Below the pieces are notes generated by a model, which was not told where the DNA came from, did not search any database, and saw only the letters and a program-made list of their open reading frames with translations. The translations under genes and the position numbers were made by a program. This document shows, piece by piece, positions 9,449 through 40,657 of a stretch of 64,000 nucleotides of DNA. This DNA comes from Deltaproteobacteria bacterium (GTDB taxonomy: Bacteria > Desulfobacterota > Binatia > UBA9968): positions 8,273-72,272 of the forward strand of contig SHYW01000004.1 in the NCBI GenBank assembly GCA_009692615.1. The letters run 5' to 3'. The stretch's first letter is position 1, and every line of letters starts with the position of its first letter.

Positions 9449-10552
9449 ATGCTGAGAGCTGGAATCGTCGGTCTGCCCAACGTCGGCAAGTCGACACTGT
9501 TTAACGCCATCACGCGCACGCGCAAAGCCGAGGCGGCCAATTATCCCTTTTGCACCATCGATCCCAACGTCGGCATGGTCACCGTGCCGGACGCGCGGCT
9601 CTATGTCTTGCAGCAGATGGTCAAAACCAACGTGGTCATCCCGGCGGTGATCGAGTTCGTTGACATCGCTGGCCTGGTCAAAGGCGCCAGCCAAGGCGAA
9701 GGGCTCGGCAATAAATTTCTCACCCATATCCGCGAAGTCGACGCCATCGTCCAAGTTGTGCGCTGCTTCGAAGACGCCGACGTGCACCATGTCTCCGGCA
9801 ACATCGATCCGGTGCGCGACATCGAAGTCATCAACACCGAACTCATGCTCGCCGATCTCGAAACCGTGAAGAAGCGGCGCGAGCGCATCGCCAAGGAGAT
9901 CAAGCGCGGCGACAAAGCCGCCGCCGCCGAGGACGCCCTGCTGGTGAAAATCGAAACCGCCCTCGACGCTGGCAAGCCAGCTCTCACTGTCGAACTGACG
10001 CCGGAAGAACACGCCATGTCCGCGCAGTTTTTCCTGCTCTCCGACAAGCGCACGATCTTCGCCTGCAACGTCAAAGAGTCCGACTTGGCCACCGCCGATC
10101 AGAACAGCTACGTGCAAAAAGTGCGCGACTACGTGAAAACCCATCTCGCTTGCGAAGCGGTGGTGATCAGCGCGCAGATCGAGAGCGACCTCGTCGATCT
10201 CGAACCCGCCGACGCTGAAGCCTTTCTCAAAGAACTCGGCGTACAAGAAAGCGGCATCGGCGCGCTCATCCGCGCAACTTATCATCTGCTCGGGTTGCGG
10301 ACTTATCTCACCGCCGGCGAAAAAGAAGTGCGTGCCTGGACCATTCACGCCGGCGACACCGCCCCCAAAGCCGCCGGCGTCATCCACTCCGACTTCGAAC
10401 GCGGCTTCATCAAAGCCGAAACCGTTTCTTACGAGGACTTAGTTCAATGCGGCTCCGTCGCCGCGGCCCGTACGAAGGGCTTATATCGCATGGAAGGGAA
10501 AGAATACGTCGTGCAGGATGGGGATGTGATGTTGTTTAAGTTCAATGTTTAG
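9449..10552 (+). CDS. ychF: redox-regulated ribosome-binding ATPase YchF (Obg family GTPase)
   Basis: GIVGLPNVGKSTLFNA P-loop, DIAGLV, a C-terminal TGS domain, and the conserved tail GKEYVVQDGDVMLFKFNV. Confidence 0.9.
   Translation: MLRAGIVGLPNVGKSTLFNAITRTRKAEAANYPFCTIDPNVGMVTVPDARLYVLQQMVKTNVVIPAVIEFVDIAGLVKGASQGEGLGNKFLTHIREVDAIVQVVRCFEDADVHHVSGNIDPVRDIEVINTELMLADLETVKKRRERIAKEIKRGDKAAAAEDALLVKIETALDAGKPALTVELTPEEHAMSAQFFLLSDKRTIFACNVKESDLATADQNSYVQKVRDYVKTHLACEAVVISAQIESDLVDLEPADAEAFLKELGVQESGIGALIRATYHLLGLRTYLTAGEKEVRAWTIHAGDTAPKAAGVIHSDFERGFIKAETVSYEDLVQCGSVAAARTKGLYRMEGKEYVVQDGDVMLFKFNV
10452..10552 (+). repeat. direct repeat R1 (3' 100 nt of ychF), copy 1
   Basis: About 88% identical to 11120-11219, and the last 60 nt are nearly identical. 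Confidence 0.65.
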
Positions 10553-10586
10553 TGAACAAGCTGAAAATGCGCAGCCGAAAGTAAAT

Positions 10587-10646
10587 CCTGTTACGTTAAC
10601 CAGGGAGACCCATTAAGAATAGTCGCGTAAAGAAAGCAACAGAGCC
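10587..10646 (+). repeat. direct repeat R2, copy 1; contains a 3' remnant of a DUF4926-type gene (..YVNQGDPLRIVA stop)
   Basis: About 80% identical to 11441-11497, which is the true 3' end of the DUF4926 gene (..HNQSPLRIVA stop). Confidence 0.55.
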
Positions 10647-10657
10647 AAATTCAATCC

Positions 10658-11074
10658 ATGAAGATTGCGCCTCAGAGTTTCTATGCAGCTATCGCTGCTG
10701 GCTGCGCCACGGTTTTGCCCTTGGTCGGGGTGCAATTAGTCGTTGATTATTTCGATTCACCCGCTAAAGGTCCGGATCGGGCAACAATGGCAGTGATCTT
10801 CCTAACGCCCATTATCATCTTGGGATTTGCAGCCTACTTTGTTGGAGTCAGGATATTACTTTCATTGCTTCGGCTCGATTCGCTTCGTACGGCATTGATC
10901 GTAAGCGCGCTCACTGTCGGCGTTCTAATAAGCTGGATGATTTTCAACGACCCGTCATCAAGCCCGAATACGTTCTGGGGATTTGTCGGACCTTCTTGCA
11001 TAGTTCTTACATCCCTCGTCGCGGGAACTTTTGTGTACGAGTGGGCGCGTCAACGTATTCATCCGAACTGGTGA
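10658..11074 (+). CDS. hypothetical integral membrane protein (3-4 TM helices)
   Basis: 138 aa and hydrophobic. Lies between R2 and the second ychF-tail copy. Confidence 0.4.
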   Translation: MKIAPQSFYAAIAAGCATVLPLVGVQLVVDYFDSPAKGPDRATMAVIFLTPIIILGFAAYFVGVRILLSLLRLDSLRTALIVSALTVGVLISWMIFNDPSSSPNTFWGFVGPSCIVLTSLVAGTFVYEWARQRIHPNW

Positions 11075-11119
11075 AATAGACCACAATACACATGACCGCT
11101 CACGTAGCGATGAATGCGA

Positions 11120-11219
11120 CTCCGTCACCGCCGCGCGCACCAAGGGCTTGTGCCGCATGGAAGGGAAAGAATATGTCGTGCAGGATGGGGATGTGATGTT
11201 GTTTAAGTTCAATGGGTAG
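11120..11219 (+). repeat. direct repeat R1 copy 2 (orphan duplicate of ychF 3' end)
   Basis: Encodes ..AARTKGLCRMEGKEYVVQDGDVMLFKFNG stop, versus the ychF tail ..AARTKGLYRMEGKEYVVQDGDVMLFKFNV. Confidence 0.65.
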
Positions 11220-11249
11220 TGCGCGCCTCGGTCGCGAACGGAAACGAAG

Positions 11250-11477
11250 ATGAAACAACGAAAACTCAAACTATTGGAAACCATCGCACTGCTTCAAGAC
11301 ATACCATCCCGCAAGCTGAAACGCGGCGAAGTTGGCACGGTAGAAGAAATCCTTGCGCCCAATTTTTACGAAGTTGAATTCTGTGATGACGAAGGGCAAA
11401 CCTACGCCGAACTGGCGTTACGCGGCATACAGATCATCCCGTTACATAACCAGAGCCCATTAAGAATTGTCGCGTGA
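11250..11477 (+). CDS. DUF4926-like small protein
   Basis: 75 aa. LLQDIPSRKLKRGEVGTVEEILAPNFYEVEFCDDEGQTYAELAL follows the DUF4926 pattern. Confidence 0.5.
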   Translation: MKQRKLKLLETIALLQDIPSRKLKRGEVGTVEEILAPNFYEVEFCDDEGQTYAELALRGIQIIPLHNQSPLRIVA

Positions 11478-11497
11478 GCAAAGAGGCCCACGACAGC
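11441..11497 (+). repeat. direct repeat R2 copy 2
   Basis: Pairs with 10587-10646. Confidence 0.55.
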
Positions 11498-11574
11498 TCC
11501 AATCTATAGAATTGGTATTATGCCCCCGGACCTTTGTCTCTTTCATTTTCCAAAACTGTGGCTACAATAGGTCC

Positions 11575-11907
11575 GTGGCTCGAGCACTCTCCCCGGATGA
11601 TGTTCTCTTTGAAGTTTTGAGTCCGCTTGGATTTCGTGTACGCGTCACACGCGGCTACTGGGAAGTCATCGTTTCGATCAAGCATCCGGTCATGGCGGGA
11701 CATGAACAGGATGTCAAAGAAACGCTTGAAACTCCCAGCGAGATTCGATTGAGCAAGAACGATTCGACAGTTCACCTGTTTTACCGGCAGAAAGAGATCG
11801 GACGATGGGTATGTGCTGTGGCCAAGCGTCTCGATGGTGAAGGCTTTCTGATTACAGCTTACCCAACCGACGCGATCAAAGAAGGAGAACAGATATGGCC
11901 CAAGTGA
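11575..11907 (+). CDS. DUF4258-like protein (putative toxin partner of DUF2283)
   Basis: C-terminal ..KEIGRWVCAVAKRLDGEGFLITAYPTD resembles the DUF4258 VVITAY motif. GTG start chosen; the ORF-track start is TTG at 11467. Confidence 0.35.
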   Translation: MARALSPDDVLFEVLSPLGFRVRVTRGYWEVIVSIKHPVMAGHEQDVKETLETPSEIRLSKNDSTVHLFYRQKEIGRWVCAVAKRLDGEGFLITAYPTDAIKEGEQIWPK

Positions 11908-12107
11908 AAGTTTTTTACGATGAAACCGGCAATACGCTCACCGTCTGGTTTGGCGATCCTGAGAGCGAGTACATCAGCGAGGAAACCGGTGAGGAAGTCA
12001 TCCTCATGAAGGACAAGGCTGGTCATGTCATCGGTTTTGAAAAGCTCAATTTCACGGTCGCCAAACCCAAGCATCTACAAGTGGCGTTCGAAACGGTAGG
12101 CGGCTAA
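11895..12107 (+). CDS. DUF2283 domain protein
   Basis: VKVFYDETGNTLTVWFGDPESEY..EEVILMKDKAGHVIGFEKL is a typical DUF2283 signature. Confidence 0.55.
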   Translation: MAQVKVFYDETGNTLTVWFGDPESEYISEETGEEVILMKDKAGHVIGFEKLNFTVAKPKHLQVAFETVGG

Positions 12108-12350
12108 CGGAATTTTCACCCCGATGTGGTTCGCTACTGTCTCGTCTGTCAAGCCTGACACGGAATCAGTGGATGGCCGTATATCACTGCATGATCTTGC
12201 TTTAAGAATCACTAGAAACTTGTAGGTGCAAAAAATATAGACACGTCCGAACAGATACTCCGACAACTTCGTTGGATCAAGTGGTTAAACGCATTCATCG
12301 CGATCAGTTTCGCAGTAACTGCCGGCTCGTTTGTGTGGGTAAGCCTTGAG

Positions 12351-12647
12351 ATGCCTCGCACCACATCCAACGCTGCTTATTCTGCCTCCTTTACGAACCA
12401 GGGCACAAACCTCTTAAACAAAGGCAAGGCAAAAGAAGTCATCCTGTTGGCAGAAGAACGCGAAAAGAAGTCTCCTATGGATCCGTACGTGTATTGGTTT
12501 CGGGGCAAAGCCTACTACCAATTAGGAGAGTATGATGCTGCGTTAAAAGATATACTTGTTGCGGACGAGATCTGCCCAGTGTGGCACGAAGAATATACCG
12601 GGCCTTTCATCAAGAGAATCAAAGAAAAACTTACTGAGAAGGGCTAG
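12351..12647 (+). CDS. hypothetical protein (possible single TPR-like motif) in a low-GC spacer
   Basis: ..AYYQLGEYDAALKDILVADEI.. The surrounding 12.1-12.75 kb is visibly AT-richer than its flanks. Confidence 0.25.
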   Translation: MPRTTSNAAYSASFTNQGTNLLNKGKAKEVILLAEEREKKSPMDPYVYWFRGKAYYQLGEYDAALKDILVADEICPVWHEEYTGPFIKRIKEKLTEKG

Positions 12648-12753: not shown

Positions 12754-14325
12754 CTAACCTTTCAATTCAAACTTCCCATCCTTATCCTGACCGATTTTCT
12801 CTTCTTCATACAACCGCGCCAGCGCACTCGCGACGGTCTTGTAATCCGCCTTGGGAAACTTATCCAAGAGATCGGCGAAGAAACAGTGCGACTTGCCGAG
12901 AGCCGCGACGATCTTCTCAACCAGTAATTCCACTGTTTCTGCTGACGTTGCATTGGCTTTTGCCTTTACCGTGACATCGGAAACGCCGACGTAATCGCTC
13001 AACTTAACCTTGCCCTGATTGAAATAAATGATCCGCTGGTACCGCTCGGCCGGAATATTTTCCGGGATCGTCGCGTCGATGCCCATCTTCGCTGTCGTCG
13101 GAACTTTGCCGTACAATGGCAGCGGCAAAGATGGATCGAGCGGCTTAGAGCGCGCGTTGGAGACGATGACGACATCGCGGTCGGCTTGCACGCGGGTCGC
13201 GACGGCCCACTCCACGTCGATGGGATCAAACACGTCGATATCGTCGTCGACGATGGTCACGTGTTTGATATCGGCGATGGACAAGAGCGCCATGATCGCG
13301 TTCTTGCCGTCGCCGGGAACTTTTTTGATCGACGCAATGATATGCCAGTGGCAACAGCCGCCGGGCGTGACGTTGATCCCAACCGTCTGCACGCCCGCTT
13401 CAGCCAATACGCGGCGCGCCGCGGCTTCGTAGATCGGCGCCGACATCCAGATATTTTCCCAAGGCATCTGCAGCGCGTAGTACATAGCGTCCTTGCGGTG
13501 CATGATCGACTTGATGCGCACTCTTGGATTCATGTGCATGCCGCCCATCAGGCGATTGAATTCGCTGAACGGCCCTTCGCTGTGCACCCAGCCTTCGGGG
13601 AGAATTTCTCCCTCTAAAACAATTTCGGCGTCGGCGATGCACGGCACCGGCACGGTTTCGCCGTCGGCGAGACGCAGCGGTTCGTTACGCAAGCCACCGG
13701 CGAAGGTCAGTTCGTTGACGCCGAGGTTGGCTTTGAATGTCGACGCGACCAATTCATACGGATGAGTGCCGATGGAGATGGAGATCGGCAGCGGTTTCTT
13801 TTTTGCCAAGGCGCGTTCGGCGAACTTGCGCATGTTGTTGGGCGTGACGATGTCGATGCCGGTGATGTTGCGCTCCTTGAGCATCAAGCGGTAGATGCCG
13901 GCGTTGATGCCGAAATCCGGGTCCTCGGCGATCACCACGCCGGCGGTGATCATCGGCCCGCCATCCATGATCGAAAACACCGGCACCGGCAGGTCGTAGA
14001 GATTTACTTTCTTGCCGGTATGAATGACTTCCTTCACCGGCGCGTTGGCGACGCGCTTCGGTTGGATCGGTTTGTCCATCGCTTTGCCGAGCTTGGCGCC
14101 GATGTTTTCATAGTCGACGCCCATGCCGAGCGCGATGCGCTTGCGCGATTGCAGCAGACCGGAAACCACCGGCATCGAATAGCCGGGCAAATTCCTAAAC
14201 AGCAGCGCCTTCTCCGACTGCGCCACCAATGCCGCCACGTCGCGCAGATCAACAGGTTTGGAAATCTCCAACAGCTCGTCGTTTTTTCTTAGCGTGTCGA
14301 TGTAATCGCGAAAGCTCGCTTTCAT
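12754..14325 (-). CDS. UbiD family (prFMN-dependent) decarboxylase with a C-terminal extension of ~35 aa
   Basis: 523 aa with full-length UbiD similarity (..GGPMITAGVV..EGPFSEFNRLMGG..VTIVDDDIDVFDPIDVEWAVATRVQ..). Confidence 0.85.
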   Translation of the reverse strand: MKASFRDYIDTLRKNDELLEISKPVDLRDVAALVAQSEKALLFRNLPGYSMPVVSGLLQSRKRIALGMGVDYENIGAKLGKAMDKPIQPKRVANAPVKEVIHTGKKVNLYDLPVPVFSIMDGGPMITAGVVIAEDPDFGINAGIYRLMLKERNITGIDIVTPNNMRKFAERALAKKKPLPISISIGTHPYELVASTFKANLGVNELTFAGGLRNEPLRLADGETVPVPCIADAEIVLEGEILPEGWVHSEGPFSEFNRLMGGMHMNPRVRIKSIMHRKDAMYYALQMPWENIWMSAPIYEAAARRVLAEAGVQTVGINVTPGGCCHWHIIASIKKVPGDGKNAIMALLSIADIKHVTIVDDDIDVFDPIDVEWAVATRVQADRDVVIVSNARSKPLDPSLPLPLYGKVPTTAKMGIDATIPENIPAERYQRIIYFNQGKVKLSDYVGVSDVTVKAKANATSAETVELLVEKIVAALGKSHCFFADLLDKFPKADYKTVASALARLYEEEKIGQDKDGKFELKG

Positions 14326-39454: not shown

Positions 39455-40657
39455 TCAAGATGCAAGACTCTTGGAATTTTCCCTCTTGCTCATCCTTCGC
39501 AACCACACCACACCGATAAGAAACAGCACTGTTGACCCCAACGAGCCAACCACGAACACGCTGGCGATGCCGGTGGCGTGAGCGATGAAGCCGCCGATGG
39601 ATGGACCGAGAATATTGCCCAGATCGCCGGCGGCGTTGTAAACACCCGAAGCCAAACCGCGGCGGACTTTCGATTCCGGTACGTCTTGGACTAAACCGAC
39701 CGCGTTCGCGACAAACACGATAGCGCGCATGAAACCCGACGCGACGTAGACGACGATGATCGTGCCGAAAGTAGAAAACAGCGGCACCAGCATCAAGATC
39801 AACGCTTGCAGCGGCAAACCGAGATAGGACAAGCCTTTGTGGCCGACTTTGTTGACCACATGGCCGCTGATTGGCCGGGTCACCGCATTGCAGCCGGCGT
39901 AGGCGGCGCGGATGATGCCGATTTGGGTCAGACTCATGCCGACCCCCAAGCCGTAGAGCGAAATGAACACGCCGCCCATTTGATGCAATAAATTTAAAAA
40001 CAACGCGACCAACACGACGAATGCCAACTCGGGTTCGAGCAAAGCTTTGAGTGAATCTTTAGAAGTCAGCTTCGCCGTTTCCTTAGCTTTCGCCACGCTC
40101 TCGCCGATCGCCTCAGGGCCATGGAGCAGCCACAAAAGCGCCACCGCCACCAACGACAAGAACGCCCCCAATTGAAACGTCCAGCCATAACCCCAATGAT
40201 CGGCGATCAAGCCGCCGAAAAAATTTCCCGTCGAGTAACCCAACGCCAGGGTGCCGACGTAGTAGCCCATGGCGTGGTTGCGGTTTTCATCGGGGGATAA
40301 AGAATCGACGTAGAACGCCATGTAAAGCGTAGTCACCGCACTGTAGGCAAAACCGTTGAGGCAATGGACGATGGCGAAGGTCCAGCTGCTGAGCGCGAAG
40401 CTATAGCAATAATTGGTCACGCCCATCGCCAGCACCGCCAGGGAAACCAGCAGCCGTGCTCTGTTCCGAACGTAGAGCATGCCCACCGGCAGGCGCGCCA
40501 TCAACGCGAAGATCGGCCCGAGGGAGATCAACGTGCCGATCAACGCCACTGGAATATGCATATGATCGAGATAAGGCGGGATCACCGTCGATGCCGAATT
40601 GCTTTGAATCGTCACCGCGACGATCGGCACCAGAAGTTTGACCGTGCTGAGCTTCAT
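39455..40657 (-). CDS. MFS transporter
   Basis: 400 aa with 12 predicted TM helices. Confidence 0.75.
   Translation of the reverse strand: MKLSTVKLLVPIVAVTIQSNSASTVIPPYLDHMHIPVALIGTLISLGPIFALMARLPVGMLYVRNRARLLVSLAVLAMGVTNYCYSFALSSWTFAIVHCLNGFAYSAVTTLYMAFYVDSLSPDENRNHAMGYYVGTLALGYSTGNFFGGLIADHWGYGWTFQLGAFLSLVAVALLWLLHGPEAIGESVAKAKETAKLTSKDSLKALLEPELAFVVLVALFLNLLHQMGGVFISLYGLGVGMSLTQIGIIRAAYAGCNAVTRPISGHVVNKVGHKGLSYLGLPLQALILMLVPLFSTFGTIIVVYVASGFMRAIVFVANAVGLVQDVPESKVRRGLASGVYNAAGDLGNILGPSIGGFIAHATGIASVFVVGSLGSTVLFLIGVVWLRRMSKRENSKSLAS

Follow-up and report, generated by a model that had tools for sequence, protein, structure and literature searches.

A predicted toxin-antitoxin gene pair with a conserved overlap, and an apparent orphan DUF4926 gene, downstream of ychF in a deltaproteobacterial genome

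A 2025 survey (PMC11980606) places DUF4258 among the BECR-fold toxin families of the RelE/ParE superfamily, as one that is undescribed and whose target is unknown. For DUF2283 proteins, also called YuzE, a literature search on YuzE/COG5428 returned nothing relevant; PMC4755241 applies the label 'DUF2283' to FseA/QseM, a usage that is not relied on here. The three small genes described here, called A, B, and C in the order in which they are read, are related to these families and to DUF4926, and are located at positions 11250-12107 of a 64,000-nt stretch (the window) of contig SHYW01000004.1, from a metagenome-assembled genome (MAG) of a Deltaproteobacteria bacterium. The three genes probably form two units: a self-contained type II-like toxin-antitoxin (TA) module made up of B and C, predicted to extend approximately from 11537 to 12167, and an orphan gene A. 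Gene pairs of the B-C kind are very widespread and already annotated, and they are experimentally untouched.

The mechanical listing of open reading frames (ORFs) and the sequence itself gave three co-directional small ORFs, all of which are real genes on the forward strand and are annotated consecutively by NCBI in the source MAG ('Deltaproteobacteria bacterium') as MSP37140.1, MSP37141.1, and MSP37142.1. Gene A (11250-11477, 75 aa) encodes a DUF4926 protein, gene B (11575-11907, 110 aa from a GTG codon) a predicted BECR-fold RNase-type toxin, and gene C (11895-12107, 70 aa) a DUF2283 (YuzE-like) protein predicted to be the antitoxin or immunity partner of B. The mechanical middle ORF began at a TTG codon (11467-11907, 146 aa), and only of that version is it true, as claimed in the original prediction, that the end of the DUF4926 ORF falls within the ORF after it. 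Its first 36 codons (11467-11574) are a spurious 5' extension that is unconserved in homologs. In the family alignment of B, the first aligned residue of the mechanical ORF is number 37, encoded by the GTG at 11575; a protein search with B returned 2266 homolog clusters, nearly all of them 106-113 aa in length and 65-90% identical; independent gene calls on two contigs with the same sequence as the window make B 110 aa, with which MSP37141.1 agrees; and in a relative with 90% nucleotide identity (locus L085), homology starts at window position 11537, 38 nt before the GTG. The TTG start was rejected on the basis of the homolog lengths, the gene calls, and the homology boundary with L085. A GTG start is common to the closest relatives of B, and ATG is usual in the wider family. 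The middle gene does have a usable start, the lack of which would have counted against the original prediction, with a -10-like hexamer, TACAAT (11563-11568), 6 nt upstream of the GTG. Because this GTG is the true start of B, the overlap of A with B is an artefact of ORF extension. A and B are 97 nt apart, separated by a non-coding spacer (11478-11574), and therefore A is not translationally coupled to B.

B and C, by contrast with A and B, do overlap, and the overlap is conserved. Relatives of B were sampled at 80 genomic loci, with their neighbourhoods within 4 kb, from Chloroflexota, Planctomycetota, Acidobacteriota, Verrucomicrobiota, Desulfobacterota, Binatia, Omnitrophota, and others. 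A C homolog was directly downstream of B in all 80 loci. The 13-nt overlap, which had been noted from the sequence of the window and which runs there from the ATG at 11895 to the TGA at 11905-11907 (ATGGCCCAAGTGA), was confirmed and was identical in 79 of the 80 loci, far beyond chance. The Shine-Dalgarno (SD) sequence of gene C, AAGGAG (11882-11887), is inside codons K102-E103-G104 of B, 7 nt upstream of the ATG, and an AAGGA(G)-type core was present 7-12 nt before the ATG of C, within these same codons, in 75 of 79 loci. The codon for G104 was GGA in 69% of loci, compared to 21% for the other glycine codons of B, and the codon for E103 was GAA in 91%, compared to 64%. This codon bias is the result of nucleotide-level selection for a ribosome-binding site. 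Both genes are under strong purifying selection: the median proportion of nonsynonymous differences (pN) was ~0.2, that of synonymous differences (pS) was saturated at ~0.8, and the ratio of the nonsynonymous to the synonymous rate (dN/dS) was ~0.1 where measurable. Because pS is saturated while the identity of the B and C proteins is high across phyla, these genes have been under long-term constraint, and their similarity is not due to recent transfer alone.

The surroundings of B-C were read from the sampled called-gene neighbourhoods. The pair stands alone amid unrelated housekeeping genes (transketolase, glycine-cleavage, luciferase-like, and others), is sometimes near TA-like genes (AbiEii, PemK, Phd/YefM, and DUF433), and is also carried by Chondrocystis, Synechocystis, and Leptospira noguchii plasmids, the L. 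noguchii copy adjoining ParB and VapC. The distribution is patchy, covering many bacterial phyla as well as MAGs labelled Nitrososphaera, and the family is common in Chloroflexota. B-C shares with type II TA systems the two small, adjacent, co-directional, and translationally coupled genes, conserved as a pair, and the patchy, mobile distribution. In one sampled locus (L081, 5813-6316 and 4751-7492), a second DUF2283 gene follows an unrelated 83-aa ORF within a cluster that includes AbiEii and PemK and is just downstream of a B-C pair. DUF2283 proteins may have partners encoded by more than one kind of upstream gene.

The predicted structure of B is that of an RNase toxin. An AlphaFold2 model built with 22 homologs was confident, with a predicted local distance difference test score (pLDDT) of 88 and a predicted template modelling score (pTM) of 0.81; its topology consists of two strands and two helices together with a sheet of five strands. 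Structural matches of the model were BrnT (6.6), colicin D (5.8), colicin E5 (5.3), and RelE (5.0), with YoeB, YafQ, HigB, and ParE further down the list. Foldseek gave weak matches, the top one again being BrnT (E=0.2). The model is thus similar in three dimensions to several established BECR toxins, and B is predicted to have the BECR (RelE / colicin D/E5 / CdiA-CT / BrnT) RNase-toxin fold. The earlier suggestion that the last two genes are a TA-like pair is supported by this predicted BECR/RelE-type fold together with the DUF2283 gene that comes next in every sampled locus.

Sequence comparisons placed B in a large, unclassified family. At 50% identity, an exhaustive hidden Markov model (HMM) search recovered 1140 representatives of it with E<=1e-3, 446 of them with E<=1e-10. 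Matches to DUF4258 below the gathering cut-off were obtained for 16 of 22 close and 22 of 45 divergent members; relatives of B scored 13-22 bits, the best ~20-22, against a cut-off of 25. There were also sub-threshold matches to PBECR2 (PF18810) in eight and to PBECR3 (PF18812) in three of the 45 divergent members, with a best E of ~2e-4, and a Leptospira relative tested against PBECR2/PBECR3 scored 18 bits, where the gathering cut-off is 30. Positions conserved over the 45 divergent members were W29, K36, H37, L51, P54, S60, L68, Y70, V82, T94, Y96, K102, G104, and W108. The polar residues among them (K36, H37, S60, Y70, T94, Y96, and K102) are plausible active-site candidates for a metal-independent RNase. 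Searches of PDB sequences with B and C returned only noise, and no match to B was found in a phage genome collection. The sole Pfam signal of the mechanical middle ORF was a sub-threshold match to DUF7778, and an NCBIfam scan of the same ORF gave no match.

Proteins with this fold are also found in polymorphic toxin systems, and B-C could be read as a displaced toxin-immunity cassette from such a system, an orphan tip of the CdiA-CT/CdiI or Rhs type. This origin seems quite improbable. B is a stand-alone protein of 110 aa with its own start in ~2266 clusters, and neither the sampled neighbourhoods nor the window contained an upstream CdiA-, Rhs-, or VENN-type sequence or secretion genes. Members of the family are frequent in Chloroflexota, with some annotated in Nitrososphaera MAGs too, and the fold itself is shared by RelE and BrnT.

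Gene C was correctly recognized as a DUF2283 gene in the original prediction. Its product matched Pfam DUF2283 (PF10049) with 39.7 bits (E=5.5e-10, gathering cut-off 23), and PF10049 was present in all 120 of the C homologs listed, for which the JGI name is 'YuzE'. C is acidic, with an isoelectric point (pI) of 4.7, compared to 6.3 for B, and it is extremely conserved, with a mean column identity of 87% across 24 homologs. It has a conserved [VI]AFE[TA] tail. The AlphaFold model of C was poor (pLDDT 61); it showed five beta strands, and residues 58-70 formed a disordered tail.

The sequences upstream of B suggest how the two genes may be expressed. A TAnAAT hexamer ended 0-14 nt before the start of B, most often 5-7 nt before it, in 41 of 78 loci, the window included, compared to a background of 0-7 hexamers per 15-nt bin further upstream. 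An SD-like tetramer preceded B in only 17 of the 78. With the TACAAT hexamer in its place and seven bases allowed downstream of it, transcription is predicted to start at or next to the G of the GTG at 11575, so that the mRNA of B would be leaderless or nearly so. In the mechanism that we propose, B would act as a metal-independent RNase toxin, and C, as a small acidic DUF2283 protein, would bind and neutralise it. The -10 box 6 nt before the GTG would produce a leaderless and poorly translated toxin cistron, while C would be translated efficiently from the strong AAGGAG in the last codons of B, across the fixed 13-nt overlap. Weak translation of B combined with strong translation of C would result in an excess of antitoxin, although the toxin gene comes first. 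The RNase activity, the toxicity, the neutralisation, and the leaderless transcription of B-C are what we infer from the predicted fold, the gene arrangement, and these signals. If the scheme is right, the fixed overlap, the SD sequence within conserved toxin codons, and a toxin cistron that probably starts without a leader would together make a compact model for antitoxin excess in a toxin-first operon. A more tentative suggestion is that B-C represents a distinct and unclassified family of BECR toxins with DUF2283 antitoxins (~1100 clusters at 50% identity) that is under purely translational control and has no DNA-binding antitoxin. Should that be true, the unusually strong conservation would point to one target, an RNA or a translation factor, that is itself universally conserved.

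Several results weigh against B-C being a TA module. The B protein of the window had no match to Pfam DUF4258 (PF14076) at E<=10, and the absence of DUF4258 similarity in an HMM search, which the original prediction regarded as a reason to give up its assignment, is formally what the current Pfam gives for this protein. Its description of the middle ORF as DUF4258-like stands in so far as MSP37141.1 carries the NCBI name 'DUF4258 domain-containing protein' despite failing the Pfam threshold, relatives have sub-threshold matches, and the predicted fold is of the BECR type, and it does not stand as Pfam membership of the window protein. It is because of the fold and the sub-threshold family evidence that the reading of B as a DUF4258-like BECR toxin stays alive. 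The PADLOC library contained no match for B or C, and PHROGs contained no match for B and only weak matches for A and C (E>=0.04). No helix-turn-helix (HTH), ribbon-helix-helix (RHH), or AbrB-type Pfam match, and no DNA-binding domain, was detected in C, and a resemblance of the C model to CdiI may be meaningless given its low confidence (pLDDT 61). A generic promoter and terminator scan of the forward strand gave nothing useful and did not call the TACAAT site, and GTG, with which B starts in the window, serves some organisms poorly as a leaderless start. In the literature, no experimental toxicity, RNase activity, or neutralisation was found for any DUF4258-like or DUF2283 protein. Finally, the amino acid identity of ~70% between phyla, at saturation of the synonymous sites, is an unusual degree of conservation for a TA pair, and would also fit a housekeeping-like function.

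This last point also favours a reading of B-C as a conserved non-toxin accessory factor with two subunits, for example an RNA-processing or ribosome-associated enzyme and its regulatory subunit. The very strong conservation (with the low dN/dS and saturated pS given above), the single copy per locus, the lack of a DNA-binding domain in C, and the absence of matches in the defence library speak for such a factor. We nevertheless consider it unlikely. The occurrence of the pair is patchy, its contexts are unrelated, and it is carried on plasmids beside ParB and VapC; the window pair is within a low-GC variable island; the fold family consists overwhelmingly of toxins; and the small, overlapping, toxin-first layout is like that of higBA and brnTA. 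The TA module therefore remains the reading that we favour for B-C. If B is an active RNase toxin that is neutralised by C, the pair would provide the first functional handle on DUF4258-like BECR proteins and on DUF2283/YuzE.

Gene A belongs to a different kind of pair. As predicted, it is a DUF4926 gene, its product matching PF16277 with 69.6 bits (E=1.5e-19, gathering cut-off 29.1) over model positions 1-56 of 57. The DUF4926 family of A is highly conserved and comprises 693 clusters, mostly of 76 aa, and A is 70-88% identical to hundreds of homologs; the window copy differs from the family in a V32E substitution and in missing a nearly invariant glycine. In a sample of 80 metagenomic loci of the DUF4926 family, a DUF6883 gene was immediately upstream of the DUF4926 gene, usually overlapping it, in 64. 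The DUF6883 partner is strongly basic (median pI 10.2) and A is mildly acidic (pI 5.8), an arrangement that, by analogy, fits a toxin-first pair. A search with tblastn found no DUF6883 anywhere in the window, so that gene A is without the usual pair, and a 3' fragment of ychF adjoins gene A where DUF6883 would be. Gene A is best read as an orphan left after the loss of its DUF6883 partner. In the proposed scheme it would be the downstream, acidic half of a DUF6883-DUF4926 pair, the basic DUF6883 having been lost in rearrangements downstream of ychF.

Other observations were made on DUF6883-DUF4926 pairs. In four loci (L097, L102, L112, and L126), the DUF6883 sequence upstream of DUF4926 was split into two frames and the DUF4926 gene was intact. 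Such splitting points to a putative toxin that has undergone frameshifts or is decaying, and it is consistent with orphan DUF4926 genes arising repeatedly. Two other loci (L087 and L090, both at 2157-2498) contained intact DUF6883 frames that were uncalled in the source annotations; that of L090 scored 95 bits to Pfam, and that of L087 is identical to a gene in L088 that scored 93 bits. Gene-call tables therefore under-count DUF6883-DUF4926 pairing. A DUF6883 profile found no relative in the PDB. The idea that A might neutralise B through kinship between B and DUF6883 was rejected after two profile-profile comparisons, which gave a probability of <1%. Elsewhere in the window, positions 39599-39700 on the reverse strand showed weak tblastn similarity to a DUF4926 protein (E=0.017, 32% over 34 aa), which is probably noise.

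The original prediction had joined all three genes in one translationally coupled module; in such a module, DUF4926 might be a second antitoxin, a chaperone, or a regulator. The genes are adjacent, co-directional, and consecutive in the NCBI annotation (MSP37140-42), a close relative has all three on one 1.25-kb contig, and trios of UPF0175, B-like, and DUF2283 genes occur on Leptospira plasmids. Gene A is nevertheless separable from B-C, and a three-component module is extremely unlikely. The overlap that suggested coupling was the artefact described above, and the 97-nt gap that replaces it has its own -10-like box. All 80 B-C loci were free of DUF4926 genes to a distance of 4 kb from the pair, and B-C was nearby in only one of the 80 DUF4926 loci (L085/L092), where the gene order was B-C-A. 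Window positions 11537-12167, made up of 38 nt upstream of B, both genes, and 60 nt downstream, match L085 positions 233-863 with 90% nucleotide identity, and the L085 copy is upstream of the DUF4926 gene rather than downstream. This segment is the approximate extent of a portable B-C cassette. In addition, DUF4926 has a regular partner in DUF6883, which is unrelated to B.

One Leptospira trio is on the L. noguchii plasmid NZ_CP092114.1 (L173, 2115-2939), where a UPF0175 gene overlaps a B-like gene that is followed by a DUF2283 gene. The B-like protein is 102 aa with sub-threshold matches to PBECR3 and DUF4258, its gene overlaps the DUF2283 gene by 8 nt, and ParB and a VapC module are adjacent. 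Three-gene variants of the B-C cassette thus exist in which the first gene differs from A.

The place in which the two units are found is itself unusual in composition and structure. The flanking genes are ychF (9449-10552) and, on the reverse strand, a gene for a UbiD-family decarboxylase (12754-14325), with ~2.2 kb between them. The low-GC DNA that had been noted nearby is part of a region in which GC is 0.46-0.52 across 10.4-12.8 kb, compared to 0.58-0.60 in the flanks. The last 109 nt of ychF (10446-10554) are repeated with 89% identity 667 nt downstream, at 11113-11221 on the forward strand, and this displaced duplicate is directly upstream of gene A. A 28-nt sequence spanning the 3' end of gene A (11456-11483) is also found at 10609-10636, just after the intact ychF, and between the repeats there is a hydrophobic ORF of 138 aa (10658-11074) that has no family match. 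The arrangement appears to be what was left by a tandem duplication or recombination event in which DUF6883 was also removed. In a related genome (L090), which encodes a YchF of 80-90% identity and has the same DUF6642 gene upstream, ychF is followed by an intact DUF6883-DUF4926 pair. The repeats, the lower GC, and the different cargo in L090 indicate a rearrangement-prone spot downstream of ychF, in agreement with the variable insertion site originally proposed.

B-C could also be read as a remnant that is decaying and no longer functions in this genome, given that its surroundings are rearranged and include an orphan gene and a second copy of the ychF end, and that B has GTG in place of the usual ATG. 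There is very little likelihood of this. Both frames are intact, all of the family-conserved residues of B and C are present in the window copies, the identical sequence was recovered from independent samples, and the GTG start is shared with the closest relatives. An intact TA cassette beside an orphan gene is the reading that we retain for this spot.

Within the A/B spacer there is a near-palindrome, CCAATCTATAGAATTGG, at 11500-11521, followed by TGGTATTAT, which resembles an extended -10 element. The site is upstream of the L085 homology boundary, and it could be a second promoter or operator or could have arisen by chance. An Rfam scan of the spacer and the island gave no match, RNA folding of the same sequences revealed no unusual structure, and no tRNA genes were found in the window. 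The lowest-GC part of the island (0.46-0.48) contains a small forward-strand ORF (12333-12647, ~98-104 aa) with sub-threshold matches to tetratricopeptide repeats (TPR), and the gene calls of identical Logan contigs (L083, 1167-1463) include this ORF as well.

The annotation of the window should accordingly show one two-gene cassette and one orphan gene, with a middle gene product of 110 aa rather than 146. Only three features of B-C are even mildly new, namely that the overlap is conserved, that a ribosome-binding site is embedded in B, and that B probably has a leaderless start.

Among known systems, DUF4258 (PF14076) is similar to B in predicted fold class and in size, residues 44-96 of the B family align to positions 16-70 of the 71-position model, and DUF4258 and B are alike in being experimentally uncharacterised (PMC11980606). 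The B family differs from it in having an extra N-terminal beta-hairpin and a helix with a K-H-P motif outside the 71-position model, in the partner, which is DUF2283 for B and is reported to be HicB or a fused MqsA for DUF4258, and in the order of the genes, the toxin coming first in B-C. BrnT/BrnA (Brucella abortus), HigB/HigA, and RelE-type systems differ in that B does not belong to their toxin families at the sequence level and that C is an all-beta DUF2283 protein in which no RHH or HTH domain was detected; the conservation of B-C is also much higher than is usual there. Unlike the toxins of the CdiA-CT/CdiI, colicin D/E5, and PBECR2/PBECR3 groups, B does not form the C-terminal tip of some large protein that is delivered, and it has no secretion context, its HMM matches to these groups are all sub-threshold, and the match of C to CdiI comes from a low-confidence model. 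Gene A, finally, is a clear DUF4926 member as in the DUF6883-DUF4926 pairs, and it differs from them in that the partner, which is present in the related ychF locus (L090), is absent from the window.

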